The translations under genes were made by a program, and so were the position numbers. A model generated the notes under the pieces. The model saw only the letters and a program-made list of their open reading frames with translations. It made no database searches and was not told the DNA's origin. From a virus (Duplodnaviria > Heunggongvirae > Uroviricota > Caudoviricetes): a stretch of 5,729 nt of DNA. Each line of letters begins with the position of its first letter. Position 1 is the first letter of the stretch. The stretch lies in the IMG/VR virus record IMGVR_UViG_2654587509_000017, one strand, 5' to 3'. Below, piece by piece: positions 441 through 5,729 of this stretch.

Positions 441-1040
441 ATGCGTAAACTTTATGCCGCCATTTTTTCCGCAGCCATTTGTCTGGCCGTATCCGGTGCG
501 CCTGCATGGGCATCTGAACATCAGTCCACGCTGAGCGCGGGGTATCTTCATGCCTCGACGAACGTTCCCGGCAGCGATGATCTGAACGGGATTAACGTGA
601 AATACCGTTATGAGTTTACGGACACACTGGGGCTGGTGACGTCATTCAGCTATGCAGGAGACAAGAATCGCCAGCTTACCCGTTACAGCGATACCCGCTG
701 GCATGAAGATTCCGTGCGTAACCGCTGGTTCAGCGTGATGGTGGGGCCGTCTGTGCGCGTGAATGAATGGTTCAGCGCGTATGCGATGGCGGGTATGGCT
801 TACAGCCGTGTGTCGACTTTCTCCGGGGATTATCTCCGCGTAACTGACAACAAGGGGAAAACGCACGACGTGCTGACCGGAAGTGATGACGGTCGCCACA
901 GCAACACGTCTCTGGCGTGGGGAGCTGGCGTGCAGTTTAACCCGACCGAATCCGTGGCCATTGATATTGCTTATGAAGGCTCCGGCAGTGGCGACTGGCG
1001 CACTGACGGTTTCATCGTGGGTGTCGGTTATAAGTTCTGA
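441..1040 (+). CDS. lom: Lom, Ail/Lom/PagC-family 8-stranded outer-membrane beta-barrel protein (lysogenic-conversion moron)
   Basis: 199-aa ORF with AGAGG (431-435) 5 nt before the ATG. N-terminal signal peptide [24 protein letters not shown] with an AWA/S cleavage site. C-terminus ...[20 protein letters not shown] matches the lambda Lom C-terminus as I recall it, including the terminal aromatic residue typical of OMP beta-signals. Position between J and stf is as in lambda. Confidence 0.93.
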
Positions 1041-1093: not shown

Positions 1094-1104
1094 GTGGGGT
1101 GAAT

Positions 1105-4068
1105 ATGGCAGTAAAGATTTCAGGTGTACTGAAAGACGGCACAGGAAAACCGGTACAGAACTGCACAATCCAGCTGAAAGCAAAACGTAACAGCACCACG
1201 GTGGTGGTGAACACGCTGGCCTCAGAAAATCCGGATGAAGCCGGGCGTTACAGCATGGACGTTGAGTACGGGCAGTACAGCGTTATTCTGTTGGTGGAGG
1301 GATTCCCGCCGTCACATGCCGGGACCATCACCGTGTATGAAGATTCCCAACCCGGTACGCTGAATGATTTTCTTGGTGCCATGACTGAGGATGATGTCCG
1401 TCCGGAGGCACTGCGCCGTTTTGAGCTGATGGTGGAAGAGGTGGCGCGTAACGCGTCCGCGGTGGCACAGAACACGGCAGCCGCGAAGAAGTCAGCCAGC
1501 GATGCCAGCACATCAGCCCGTGAGGCGGCAACCCATGCGACTGATGCTGCGGACTCAGCACGCGCAGCCAGCACGTCAGCCGGACAGGCCGCGTCGTCGG
1601 CTCAGTCAGCGTCTTCCAGCGCAGGAACGGCATCAACAAAGGCCACTGAAGCATCAAAAAGTGCTGCCGCTGCAGAGTCCTCAAAAAGCGCGGCGGCTAC
1701 CAGTGCCGGTGCGGCGAAAACGTCAGAAACGAATGCGGCAGCGTCACAACAATCAGCCGCCACTTCTGCATCCACCGCGACCACGAAAGCGTCAGAAGCT
1801 GCCTCCTCAGCCAGGGATGCGTCGGCTTCAAAAGAGGCGGCAAAATCATCAGAAACGAGCGCAGCCTCGAGCGCCAGTAGTTCCGCTTCCTCGGCAACGG
1901 CGGCAGGCAATTCCGCGAAAGCGGCAAAAACGTCCGAGACGAACGCTAAGTCTTCTGAAACGGCAGCGGAACAGAGTGCCTCCGCAGCAGCAGACTCAAA
2001 AACAGCGGCTGCATCATCTGCCAGCGCCGCGTCAACAAGTGCCGGGCAGGCCTCAGCCAGTGCCTCCGCCGCCGGAAAATCGGCAGAAAGTGCTGCATCA
2101 TCCGCTTCAACAGCCACAACGAAGGCTGGCGAAGCCACTGAACAGGCCAGCGCAGCAGCGAGGTCTGCTTCCGCAGCGAAGACATCCGAAACGAACGCGA
2201 AAGCGTCGGAAACCAGCGCAGAATCCTCAAAAACGGCTGCCGCATCGTCCGCCAGTTCGGCGGCGTCATCGGCATCATCTGCGTCTGCTTCAAAAGATGA
2301 GGCGACCAGACAAGCGTCAGCAGCGAGGGGCAGCGCCACGACGGCATCCACGAAGGCGACAGAGGCTGCTGGCAGTGCGACGGCGGCAGCTCAGAGCAAA
2401 AGTACGGCGGAATCCGCGGCAACGCGCGCCGAGACAGCGGCAAAACGGGCAGAGGATATTGCATCCGCCGTGGCGCTTGAGGATGCGAGCACGACGAAAA
2501 AGGGGATAGTACAGCTCAGCAGTGCGACTAACAGCACTTCCGAGTCACTGGCGGCAACGCCAAAAGCCGTTAAGGCCGCGTATGAGCTGGCTAACGGGAA
2601 ATACACCGCACAGGATGCAACGACAGCACAGAAAGGGATAGTTCAGCTTAGCAACGCGACCAACAGCACATCTGAAATGCTGGCGGCAACGCCAAAGTCG
2701 GTAAAGGCAGCCTATGACCTTGCTAACGGGAAATATACTGCTCAGGACGCTACGACAACACAAAAAGGAATTGTCCAGCTCAGTAGTGCAACCAACAGCG
2801 CATCTGAAACGCTTGCCGCGACACCGAAAGCAGTGAAAGCAGCTAATGATAATGCGAATGGTCGGGTACCTTCTGCCCGTAAGGTGAATGGTAAGGCGCT
2901 TTCAGCTGATATAACACTGACGCCGAAAGATATTGGTACGCTTAACTCAACAACAATGTCATTCAGCGGTGGTGCTGGTTGGTTCAAATTAGCAACGGTA
3001 ACCATGCCACAGGCGAGTTCTGTTGTTTCAATTACGTTGATTGGTGGCGCGGGATTTAACGTGGGGTCACCTCAACAGGCAGGTATATCTGAACTTGTTT
3101 TGCGTGCAGGTAATGGTAATCCGAAGGGGATTACTGGTGCTTTATGGCAGCGCACATCGACAGGGTTTACAAATTTTGCCTGGGTCAATACATCTGGTGA
3201 TACTTACGATATTTACGTTGCAATCGGAAATTATGCGACTGGTGTAAATATTCAATGGGATTATACCAGTAATGCCAGCGTGACGATTCATACGTCACCA
3301 GCATATTCTGCTAATAAGCCGGAAGGGTTAACGGACGGTACAGTTTATTCACTCTATACGCCATCAGAGCAGTTTTATCCGCCTGGCGCACCAATCCCGT
3401 GGCCATCAGATACCGTTCCGTCTGGCTATGCCCTGATGCAGGGGCAGACTTTTGACAAATCTGCATACCCGAAACTTGCAGCCGCTTATCCGTCAGGCGT
3501 GATCCCTGATATGCGTGGCTGGACGATTAAGGGCAAACCCGCCAGTGGTCGTGCCGTATTGTCTCAGGAACAGGACGGCATTAAATCGCACACCCACAGC
3601 GCCAGCGCATCCAGTACGGATTTGGGGACGAAAAACACATCGTCGTTTGATTACGGAACCAAATCCACGAATAACACCGGGGCGCATACCCATAGTATTA
3701 GCGGGACTGCAAATAGTGCCGGTGCGCACCAACACAAGAGTTCCGGTGCATTTGGTGGCACGAACACGAGCATTTTCCCTAATGGTTATACCGCGATTTC
3801 AAATCTAAGCGCGGGGATTATGAGCACAACAAGCGGTAGTGGCCAGACTCGTAATGCAGGGAAGACATCATCAGATGGTGCTCATACCCACTCGCTGTCC
3901 GGCACTGCTGCAAGCGCAGGCGCACATGCACATACTGTCAGTATTGGTGCTCATACGCACTCCGTTGCGATTGGTTCACATGGACACACCATCACCGTTA
4001 ACGCTGCTGGTAACGCGGAAAACACCGTCAAAAACATCGCATTTAACTATATTGTGAGGCTTGCATAA
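1105..4068 (+). CDS. stf: Side tail fibre protein Stf (lambda Stf / T4 gp37-related), 987 aa from ATG 1105; the ORF track starts 2 codons earlier at GTG 1099
   Basis: N-terminus [26 protein letters not shown]... matches the lambda Stf N-terminus as recalled. It has a long Ala/Ser-rich shaft, three tandem ~43-aa fibre repeats ([26 protein letters not shown]), the conserved [38 protein letters not shown] block, and a C-terminal cluster of seven HxH motifs ending ...[28 protein letters not shown] lies 5-10 nt upstream of ATG 1105. Confidence 0.93.
2491..2880 (+). repeat. Three tandem in-frame fibre repeats of 129-132 bp (43-44 aa) inside stf
   Basis: Units start at 2491 ([43 protein letters not shown]), 2620 ([44 protein letters not shown]) and 2752 ([37 protein letters not shown]..., degenerating). 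The amino-acid sequence is conserved more strongly than the nucleotides, with many synonymous differences between units. Confidence 0.85.
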
Positions 4069-4643
4069 TGGCATTCAGAATGAGTGAACAAGCACGGACC
4101 ATAAAAATTTATAATCTGCTGGCCGGAACTAATGAATTTATTGGTGAAGGTGACGCATATATTCCGCCTCATACAGGTCTGCCAGCAAACAGTACCGATA
4201 TTGCACCGCCAGATATTCCGGCAGGCTTCGTGGCTGTTTTCAACAGTGATGAGGCATCGTGGCATCTCGTTGAAGATCATCGGGGAAAAACCGTCTATGA
4301 CGTGGCTTCCGGCGACGCGTTATTTATTTCTGAACTCGGTCCGTTACCGGAAAATGTTACCTGGTTATCGCCGGAAGGGGAGTTTCAGAAGTGGAACGGC
4401 ACAGCTTGGGTGAAGGATACGGAAGCAGAAAAACTGTTCCGGATCCGGGAGGCGGAAGAAACAAAAAACAACCTGATGCAGGTAGCCAGTGAGCATATTG
4501 CGCCGCTTCAGGATGCTGCAGATCTGGAAATTGCAACGGAGGAAGAAATCTCGTTGCTGGAAGCATGGAAAAAGTATCGGGTATTGCTGAACCGTGTTGA
4601 TACGTCAACTGCACAGGATATTGAATGGCCAGCACTGCCGTAG
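4068..4643 (+). CDS. tfa: Tail fibre assembly chaperone Tfa (lambda Tfa / T4 gp38-like N-terminal family)
   Basis: 191-aa [99 protein letters not shown]... is nearly identical to lambda Tfa as I recall it. Its ATG (4068-4070) overlaps the stf TAA (4066-4068) by 1 nt in a TAATG arrangement. Confidence 0.93.
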
Positions 4644-4719
4644 GGTAAAACATATAAATTCTATAATTAGATGTATCTTTCCATTTACGGCAAGGAAGGG
4701 GGCTTGGAACACGTAAAGC

Positions 4720-4742
4720 ATCTCACACCGAGATTATTTTTT
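4720..4742. terminator. Weak hairpin plus T-run in the convergent tfa/recombinase intergenic region; possible terminator
   Basis: ATCTC (4720-4724) and GAGAT (4730-4734) flank a 5-nt loop, followed on the + strand by TATTTTTT (4735-4742). The stem is short and AT-rich, so this is low confidence. Confidence 0.25.
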
Positions 4743-5331
4743 ATATGTCAGGTGTCTGAAGTTTTGCTTTGGCTCTTAAAATGGTTTGCCGCGAGGTTTT
4801 GAATTCCCGGGCAATGGCACTTATACTTACACCTGACTTAATTCGTTCGAATACCACCTGTTTCTGTTCTTCATTTAACACAGGTGGTCGACCAAAACGT
4901 TTCCCTGCGCCGCGGGCTCTTACTATCCCGGAATGAGTGCGTTCAAGTAAAAGGTCTCGTTCAAATTCAGCGACTGCTGAAATTACTTGCATCATCATTT
5001 TTCCTGTTGGACTGGTCAGGTCAATGCCACCCAATGCCAAGCAATGCACTCTGATACCTGTTTCGGTCAGTTGTTCCACTGTTTTCCTGATATCCATTGC
5101 ATTACAACCAAGGCGATCCAGTTTTGTCACAATCAATTGATCACCACATTTCAGGCGAGCAAGCAACCGGTTAAAACCAGGACGCTCACTGGTTGCTGCT
5201 GAGCCGCTAATGTGTTCTTCGATTATTTGCTGAGGTTTGATTTTAAAACCTGCACTTTCGATTTCCCGGCGTTGATTTTCGGTGGTCTGATCCAGCGTTG
5301 ATATCCGACAGTAAGCAAAAATTCGAGACAT
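4741..5331 (-). CDS. Serine recombinase, small resolvase/DNA-invertase family (catalytic domain plus C-terminal HTH)
   Basis: 196-aa ORF starting [15 protein letters not shown]. The R-I-S-T-x-D-Q motif places the predicted nucleophile at Ser11, there is a KLDRLG box at residues 70-75, and a ...[12 protein letters not shown]... E-helix region. The C-terminus [40 protein letters not shown] looks like a helix-turn-helix. Length and architecture match Hin/Gin/Pin invertases and Tn3/gamma-delta resolvases; I cannot tell from sequence alone which subtype it is. Confidence 0.85.
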
Positions 5332-5468
5332 AGTGAGACTCTATACGAAATTGGTGTTCATATCATAATGCATCTCAGAAAATAATTATGATTATTTTTG
5401 TGCATATTTGTATGTACACGTTCGAAAATAAACGAATGCGTATGCAACCCCGTAATTTTGGTGAGACC

Positions 5469-5482
5469 CAAAATCGATTTTG
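5469..5482. promoter_or_regulatory. Perfect 14-bp palindrome CAAAATCGATTTTG in the AT-rich region upstream of the recombinase; candidate protein-binding site
   Basis: The sequence is exactly self-complementary and lies about 140 bp upstream of the recombinase start codon. Its function is unknown. Confidence 0.25.
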
Positions 5483-5636
5483 TGAAAAATGGCTTTAACT
5501 CGGTTTGTTTTTCGAGTTCCGGGCGGACTCAAGGAAGAAGAATAGTGTTGCGTGTTATTTTAACCAGATTTCAAGTTGTTTGGACGTGGAAAAGTGGAGC
5601 AAAATGTTGTTGAAGTGGAAAAATGATAAAAAAGTA

Positions 5637-5729
5637 GGTGATGCTGCCAACTTACTGATTTAGTGTATGATGGTGTTTTTGAGGTGCTCCAGTGGCTTCT
5701 GTTTCTATCAGCTGTCCCTCCTGTTCAGC
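5637..5729 (+). mobile_element. IS1 insertion sequence, left end (terminal inverted repeat plus start of insA), truncated by the window edge
   Basis: 5637 onward reads GGTGATGCTGCCAACTTACTGATTTAGTGTATGATGGTGTTTTTGAGGTGCTCCAGTGGCTTCTGTTTCTATCAGCTGTCCCTCCTGTTCAGC, which matches the IS1 left terminus and insA 5' region as I recall them. There is an abrupt change from the preceding AT-rich DNA at 5636/5637. Confidence 0.9.
5692..5729 (+). CDS. insA: insA (IS1 transposition regulator / transposase N-terminal part), 5' fragment, GTG start
   Basis: GTG at 5692 followed by codons for ASVSISCPSCS..., matching the InsA N-terminus MASVSISCPSCSATDG... as recalled; GAGG lies upstream at 5681-5684. Confidence 0.8.
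   Translation, partial: MASVSISCPSCS

Follow-up and report, generated by a model that had tools for sequence, protein, structure and literature searches.

The pin gene of Rac/Qin-type Escherichia coli prophages as the probable remnant of a Tn3-family mini-transposon beside the tail-fibre genes

The DNA analysed here (the window) is a 5,729-nucleotide stretch of the viral record IMGVR_UViG_2654587509_000017, which covers the right arm of an Escherichia coli lambdoid prophage of the Rac/Qin type and in which a small serine recombinase gene known as pin (pinR or pinQ) lies next to the side tail-fibre gene stf and the tail-fibre assembly gene tfa. We report that the 834 bp at 4698-5531 probably represent the fossil of a transposase-less Tn3-family transposon that lies beside the fibre genes. 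The unit consists of a terminal inverted repeat (IR-A), a resolvase gene (tnpR, annotated pin), its res site, a spacer and a second terminal inverted repeat (IR-B), flanked on both sides by AGGAA (Table 1). Its 834 bp are filled by pin, res and the inverted repeats, and no transposase homology was detected in the window or in the prophage loci by tblastn with the transposase of a related Shewanella transposon (L015) as query. An earlier note on this sequence had described an invertase-like recombinase without a visible invertible segment, and had offered two readings: a resolvase-type or cargo recombinase with no part in fibre switching, or the loss of such a segment. The first is supported, in the shape of the tnpR gene of a transposase-less Tn3-family mini-element; the second finds no support in the evidence given below.

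Table 1. Features of the window, with coordinates counted from its first letter.
Feature	Position	Strand	Basis or remark
lom	441-1040		
stf, side tail-fibre gene	1099-4068		
tfa, tail-fibre assembly gene	4068-4643	+	Pfam Caudo_TAP, E = 3.6e-43; tfaQ/tfaR in E. coli annotations
Left target-site duplication AGGAA	4693-4697		Abuts the outer G of IR-A
IR-A, diverged Tn3-family terminal inverted repeat, tnpR end	4698-4732	+	27/38 matches to the 38-bp repeat, with a 3-nt deletion
pin (pinR/pinQ), TnpR-type small serine recombinase, 196 amino acids	4741-5331	-	Domains and identity to K-12
res subsite III	5341-5365	-	Right half CTATACGAAATT well conserved, matrix score 14.2 at 5341-5352, at a distance from the ATG shared by every relative
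res subsite II, 34 bp (12+10+12), diverged	5372-5405	-	Positional homology to ATATCCGAAAGT-N10-ACTTTCGGACAT in relatives
res subsite I, 28 bp (12+4+12), presumed crossover site	5418-5445	-	Positional homology to GTGTCCGAAATC-GACC-TGTTTCGGACAT in relatives
Spacer from res to IR-B, with palindrome CAAAATCGATTTTG (5469-5482)	5446-5493		Homologous to the spacer of IncK plasmid L004
IR-B, strongly diverged second terminal inverted repeat	5494-5531	-	24/38 matches to the consensus, 26/38 to the syntenic repeat of L004; tip TGAG, not GGGG
Right target-site duplication AGGAA	5532-5536		Same junctions in K-12 Rac
IS1 end	5637-5729	+	Identical to IS1 copies annotated in L001 and L002

The pin product combines a Resolvase domain (PF00239, E = 2.5e-36) with a C-terminal HTH_7 domain (PF02796, E = 3.8e-11). 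It is identical to PinR of E. coli K-12 at all 196 positions and to the protein annotated as a 'DNA invertase' in phage HannyBb, while the 834-bp element as a whole matches the Rac copy of K-12 at 831 of 834 positions. Identity to the Din invertases Cin, Gin and PinE is 36.1-39.2%, as against 75-82% among the Din members themselves, and that to gamma-delta resolvase is 33-35%; members of a clade containing tnpR genes share 60-85% with pin. In a neighbour-joining tree, pin likewise falls in a clade separate from Gin, Cin and PinE. Its relatives include the recombinase of more than 250 E. coli plasmids (84-85% identity), those of about 1,500 further plasmids (60-80%) and genes in Shewanella, Erwinia, Budvicia, Photorhabdus, Sphingobium, Rhodobacterales and others (57-78%).

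Several of these relatives lie within transposons. On E. coli plasmid pRM10386-2 (L003, 84% identity) and in Shewanella (L015, 77%), the related gene is divergent from one encoding a protein with DDE_Tnp_Tn3 and DUF4158 domains (E = 1e-123 to 1e-148); in Citrobacter (L039, 78.5%) the neighbour is annotated as a 'Tn3 family transposase', and transposase remnants adjoin the relatives in L017, L018, L019 and L024. The transposons end in perfect or near-perfect copies of a 38-bp inverted repeat, GGGGTCCGCTTGGAAAACGGAAAATATCCCACGCTAAG, with 5-bp duplications that read TTTTA/TTTTA around the 3,814-bp transposon of L003 and TAGAT/TAGAT around the 9,428-bp transposon of L015. Because the related genes are divergently oriented to a Tn3 transposase gene within such repeats and duplications, the pin clade can be assigned, by sequence comparison, to the tnpR genes of a group of Tn3-family transposons. 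This classification as a Tn3-family resolvase module is independent of the claim that the unit transposed as a whole. The placement of the recombinase with transposon and plasmid resolvases is also the outcome that the earlier note had named in advance as contradicting an invertase, and the label 'invertase-like' reflects naming by weak homology. We leave the parent transposon unnamed: one paper lists 'Tn5403-pinR', but the pinR-like gene in a comparable Klebsiella locus is a separate plasmid resolvase.

The related loci also show features of their own. In Erwinia oleae (L019, 1299-2633), two tnpR paralogues with 74% nucleotide identity are divergently arranged around a symmetric III'-II'-I-II-III array in which one subsite I is apparently shared, an unusual double-resolvase res. 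On two unrelated plasmids (L004, 5683-6687; L039, 274-1278), IS4321 lies within or beside the 38-bp transposon repeat, which in L004 is split, with the outer 21 nt at 6944-6964. IS4321 prefers inverted repeats of the Tn21/Tn3 type, and its placement in both plasmids fits this preference.

The ends of the mini-element were located with the 38-bp repeat as defined from the perfect or near-perfect copies at both ends of the transposons in L003, L015, L017 and L024. IR-A is the best plus-strand local alignment of this repeat in the window (score 41, equalled in 3 of 300 shuffled windows), and IR-B is the best minus-strand alignment (score 36). IR-B is supported by its inverted orientation, by the target duplication and by synteny with plasmid L004, where an inverted repeat likewise lies upstream of res. 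In the control transposons of L003 and L015, the 5-bp duplications occupy equivalent positions relative to the inverted repeats. Homology between prophage and plasmid copies extends over the gene, about 45 bp past its stop codon and 130-230 bp upstream. Taken together, these arrangements suggest that the mini-element was probably inserted as a unit.

The DNA upstream of pin appears to be a res site. Half-sites with the approximate consensus (C/A)TGTCCGAAA occur within the 120 bp preceding the ATG of eight relatives, at fixed offsets of -116/-100, -76/-54 and -23 from it. They pair into dyads of 28 bp (12+4+12), 34 bp (12+10+12) and, for the shorter third, about 22-25 bp, with a TATAAT (-10) element between the second and third. 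The res subsites of Tn3 and gamma-delta measure 28, 34 and 25 bp. The predicted layout in the relatives is thus that of a Tn3/gamma-delta res, unlike the single 26-bp Din sites of the e14 and Mu controls, and the DNA upstream of pin aligns to it with positions and spacings retained. Half-sites were scored with a position weight matrix (PWM) built from 34 half-sites of the relatives, in which the minimum training score was 9.4. The two halves of subsite II in the window reach only 1.3 and 1.9, and in subsite I the right half is weak (6.7) and the left degenerate (0.3). A -10-like TATGAT at 5362-5367 overlaps the left half of subsite III.

These scores point to a module in decay. Only two of the five scored half-sites survive (the right halves of subsites III and I), the rest lying between 0.3 and 1.9, and between prophage and plasmid copies the res region is 69% identical (gapped) compared with 84% for the coding sequence. 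Of the amino acid differences from the plasmid TnpR whose direction can be assigned by reference to six outgroups, 16 arose on the prophage branch and 2 on the plasmid branch. Among the former is R76C: codon 76 of pin (5104-5106, TGT, minus strand) encodes Cys where the LDRLGR motif has its conserved Arg, the residue that corresponds to R71 of Tn3 resolvase. Cys occupies this position in all 15 prophage or phage copies compared, while Arg is found in all 11 relatives and in Gin, PinE and gamma-delta. Tn3 R71 is one of six crucial residues (Y6, R8, S10, D36, R68 and R71), and its mutation abolishes recombination and slows cleavage about 1,000-fold (PMC2794168). The other catalytic residues are kept in pin (Y7, R9, S11, an acidic residue at the D36 position, and R73). 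Two copies, one from Shigella flexneri SFBU0723 and the other from a single locus of E. coli ECGI0523 (L025 and L026, 6001-6600), are multiply frameshifted pseudogenes; among nine pin alleles, 5 codons show synonymous and 5 non-synonymous polymorphism. With its inverted-repeat tips mutated, its res degenerate and Cys at the R71 equivalent, the prophage module appears to be decaying, and a present-day role in DNA binding or modulation seems more likely than efficient strand exchange.

The history that we propose is as follows. With a Tn3-type transposase acting in trans, the unit would have inserted between tfa and ydfK in an ancestral lambdoid phage of the Rac/Qin type, in an AT-rich interval, duplicating AGGAA. 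Insertion at this point would make the position beside the tail-fibre genes an accident, and no invertible segment would ever have existed here. By analogy with Tn3 and gamma-delta, the protein of the parent transposons would bind six half-sites (approximately TGTCCGAAA) arranged in 28-, 34- and about 22-25-bp dyads, cointegrates would be resolved through two directly repeated res sites, and TnpR would probably repress its own promoter.

The window was also searched for signs of a fibre switch. As the earlier note had observed, tfa and the minus-strand recombinase gene converge across a gap of 97 bp (tfa ends at 4643 and the open reading frame spans 4741-5331), and no second tfa or fibre tip lies in inverted orientation: tblastn with the window Tfa and the C-terminus of its Stf, with TfaE, TfaP and StfE of e14 and with U and U' of Mu found plus-strand genes only, all minus-strand matches having E > 1. 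Its statement that no invertible segment is visible also stands, in that the window contains no inverted-repeat pair resembling crossover sites. A general search of the window for inverted repeats yielded nothing but short pairs of low identity with no meaningful content between them, the e14 pix core is absent even when up to 3 mismatches are allowed, and no pix- or gix-like site was found in the window. In the e14 control, 21-nt inverted repeats lie 1,797 bp apart.

Two smaller sequence features had been flagged around the gene. The imperfect direct repeat was placed correctly (GCATCTCA-N6-GATTATTTTT at 4718-4741 and GCATCTCA-N12-GATTATTTTT at 5370-5399), with spacers of 6 and 12 nt rather than 5 and 12, because one extra base had been counted in the second block. 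The two-block match occurs in 5 of 20,000 shuffles of the two flanks and is rarer than chance, in a test that is itself post hoc. The first 15 nt of the first copy are the inner end of IR-A and its other 9 bp run up to the stop codon, and the second overlaps res subsite II; directly repeated recombination sites were rejected as an explanation, as the copies sit in functionally different parts. A resemblance between the inner end of the inverted repeat and res subsite II is seen in the prophage and, more weakly, in L003 (5585-5615 versus 4920-4955), with a sequence that is lineage-specific; it could reflect a shared binding motif, gene conversion or chance. The palindrome in the spacer is real, 14 bp long and the sole one in the window, but it lacks significance, being present in 28% of shuffled windows. 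Combined with the nearby CNCAAAAT motifs, it was considered as a 26-bp Din-like site and rejected: the family PWM score is negative, the palindrome is not significant, and it is mutated in L026.

Several observations weigh against a fossil mini-transposon or limit what can be claimed for it. IR-B is weak on its own (24-26 of 38 positions), and its score is equalled in 37 of 300 shuffles (12%). An empty target site was not found in 5,426 E. coli genomes or the phage collection, where phage 2H10, pursued as a lead, proved to be a filled site, and a pattern search of viral contigs found no independent insertion with another duplication. Plasmid L004 carries the arrangement IR-res-tnpR-IR without a matching duplication. 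Transposition as a unit is therefore carried mainly by one 5-bp match, for which we estimate a chance probability of roughly 0.001-0.003. Neither is the gene simply dead, because its dN/dS (ratio of non-synonymous to synonymous substitution rates) against the plasmid gene is 0.15 and published work reports PinQ overproduction phenotypes and P-segment inversion (see below); the pin reading frame is also intact in most copies. The weakness of IR-B, the undetected empty site and second insertion, and the same left-hand arrangement in L004 without a target duplication all favour another origin, in which recombination, illegitimate or homologous, brought the res-tnpR module in from a plasmid or transposon, with IR-B and AGGAA as coincidences. 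We consider this improbable, given that the two best alignments of the inverted repeat in the window sit exactly at the two ends of the plasmid-homologous block and in inverted orientation, that the five bases abutting both predicted tips are identical, and that two control transposons have the same geometry. Far less credible still is a Din-type fibre-switching invertase whose adjacent segment, with alternative tips and a second tfa, was deleted. The stf-tfa adjacency does recall Mu, P1 and e14, the annotations name the gene pin, the best match of solved structure is Gin, and the raw score slightly favours Gin (105 bits) over gamma-delta or Tn3 resolvase (82 bits), which also counts against our reading. 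The low identity to Din members given above speaks against it, as does orientation: pin converges on tfa, whereas gin starts 67 bp past the G boundary and pinE about 60 bp past pixR, both reading away from the segment. Such a deletion would also have to account for a window that holds neither crossover-like sites nor an inverted tfa or fibre remnant, and for a gene that lies between transposon inverted repeats and a target duplication and has transposon tnpR genes as its close relatives.

A further alternative places the substrate at a distance, with PinR/PinQ as a working trans-acting invertase of the 1,797-bp P segment of e14 and a chimeric Stf that blocks adsorption of phage T2. It concerns present-day function and is compatible with a transposon origin; we regard it as a minority possibility, unlikely but deserving weight. 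Kirigo et al. (NAR 2025, PMC12529663) note that no segment adjoins PinQ or PinR and report that overproduced PinQ inverts the e14 P segment (88% inversion, up from about 30%) and confers protection from phage T2; that pinQ deletion lowers both inversion and T2 survival; and that the effect is abolished by stfP, stfE or e14 deletions. This is the explanation that the literature currently offers for a recombinase gene with no segment beside it. The window protein is exactly PinR, which the same study treats as equivalent to PinQ, and the pix half-site TTCTCCCAAACC agrees with the best family half-site CTGTCCGAAACC at 9 of 12 positions. On the other hand, a pinE mutant in that study was locked in one orientation despite the presence of pinQ and pinR, and its main text describes neither an active-site mutant nor a test of PinQ without PinE. 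PinR carries Cys at the Tn3 R71 position, where mutation abolishes recombination; with the family PWM, the pix half-sites reach 2.0-2.4, where genuine sites reach 9.4 or more; and the family crossover sites are 28 bp long compared with 26 bp for pix. Resolvases such as those of Tn3 and gamma-delta normally require accessory subsites and directly repeated sites, which also counts against direct inversion of the P segment. Because of Cys76, the locked pinE mutant, the low pix scores and the 26- versus 28-bp geometry, direct catalysis by PinQ is doubtful, and an indirect effect through PinE is a live alternative.

One way to reconcile a decayed resolvase with these phenotypes is that PinR/PinQ is an exapted, catalytically crippled resolvase which, deprived of the R71-equivalent Arg and of most of its res, has been kept across thousands of E. 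coli genomes to modulate other processes through DNA binding, a suggestion that we make tentatively and would not bet on. Such a protein could bias the orientation of the P segment under PinE catalysis, or regulate genes. If this were true, the reported PinQ anti-phage 'inversion' system would work indirectly, through PinE.

The closest known counterpart of the mini-element is TIME-RES, a mobile IR-res-tnpR-IR element without a transposase that was captured experimentally in the act of transposing and described as a 'portable recombination system' (Szuplewska et al. 2014, PMC4133298); related non-autonomous Tn3-family elements are the TIMEs and IS101 (PMC4133298). TIME-RES is likewise short, has Tn3-family inverted repeats of about 38 bp, carries only res and a resolvase gene, and lies in an AT-rich target with a 5-bp duplication, the same parts list as in the window. 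It differs in that it was caught in Pseudomonas and encodes a 309-amino-acid resolvase related to that of Tn5563, while the window element encodes a 196-amino-acid protein of another clade and is a fixed, decayed component of lambdoid prophages in E. coli; its mobility is putative. With Tn3 and gamma-delta it shares a small serine recombinase with an HTH_7 domain. The transposons related to it resemble them further: in L003, L015 and L039 the gene is divergent from tnpA with res between, the predicted res of the relatives has three dyads (about 28, 34 and 22-25 bp) and contains the promoter, and the 38-bp inverted repeats start with GGGG and finish with TAAG, accompanied by 5-bp duplications. 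The pin product differs from gamma-delta resolvase in belonging to another TnpR clade (33-35% identity), and the prophage copy has no tnpA and carries Cys at the R71 position.

The likeness to the Din systems (Gin of Mu, Cin of P1, PinE of e14, and Hin) lies in the superfamily, the domain layout, the vicinity of phage tail-fibre genes and a broadly similar half-site flavour, TC..AAAC. The window gene departs from them in having no paired 26-bp sites or invertible segment, in its opposite orientation and in its putative res-type accessory subsites. Clade members with 74-85% identity also occur in plasmid maintenance regions, beside ParA (L038) or divergent from a RelE/ParE toxin-antitoxin pair (L004), as do plasmid multimer-resolution resolvases; the window module, by comparison, is carried by a prophage, its one res is decayed, and no multimers in need of resolution are obvious. 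A true Din-clade invertase (55% identity to PinE) is found near attP in phage HK225 (L035, 3998-4546), after a tail fibre gene, tfa, dinI and a hypothetical gene and with no annotated invertible segment, and it is a better orphan-invertase candidate than the pin gene of the window.

The surrounding locus is widespread. More than 2,000 of 5,426 complete E. coli genomes carry at least 80% of bases 4000-5729, annotated as tfaQ/tfaR and pinQ/pinR, and loci that are intact run on past pin through ydfK and ynfT to the end of the prophage. In the window, tfa is only a neighbour and lies outside the mini-element, as does the IS1, a separate and later insertion that takes the place of the ydfK side of the intact loci. 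The right edge of the feature that had been noted, 5636, is the junction with the IS1 end, and the stretch between the recombinase gene and this end is AT-rich. The IS1 end lies 105 bp past IR-B, about 11 bp before the position of the ydfK stop codon in intact loci, and the location of IS1 within the region varies among strains, as in L001, where it occupies the tfaQ-pinQ interval. A scan of 4500-5729 found no canonical terminator. Within stf (1490-2875), long degenerate repeats rich in Ala and Ser precede three tandem 132-nt units at 2480-2875 (Phage_fiber_2 repeats), and the Stf of the window, at 989 amino acids, is shorter than K-12 StfR (3,363-bp coding sequence). Copies of the E. coli prophage pin with 99-100% identity also appear on contigs assigned to metagenome-assembled genomes of Alistipes, Draconibacterium and Caldithrix (L007, L010 and L011), which are probably contaminating E. 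coli DNA. A liver fluke appears among the PinQ 'hosts' in published work (PMC12529663).

Both the gene (pinR/pinQ) and the kind of element (a Tn3-family resolvase module, or TIME-RES-type non-autonomous transposon) are already known; what may be new is the recognition of the Rac and Qin 'Pin' as a fossil mini-Tn3 resolvase with a mutated catalytic arginine, and in the literature we found no paper linking pinR to Tn3. This reading would explain a long-standing oddity of the K-12 annotation, in which Rac and Qin carry two 'Pin' invertases without an invertible segment, and it suggests that the name misleads. Because the gene appears to be a Tn3-family resolvase in a fossil mini-transposon, genome scans should not infer tail-fibre switching from the presence of pinR or pinQ. 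It also calls for caution about the 2025 claim that PinQ/PinR directly inverts the e14 P segment as an anti-phage defence. More broadly, associations of the form 'serine recombinase next to X', such as those used in the discovery of defence islands, can stem from transposon fossils.

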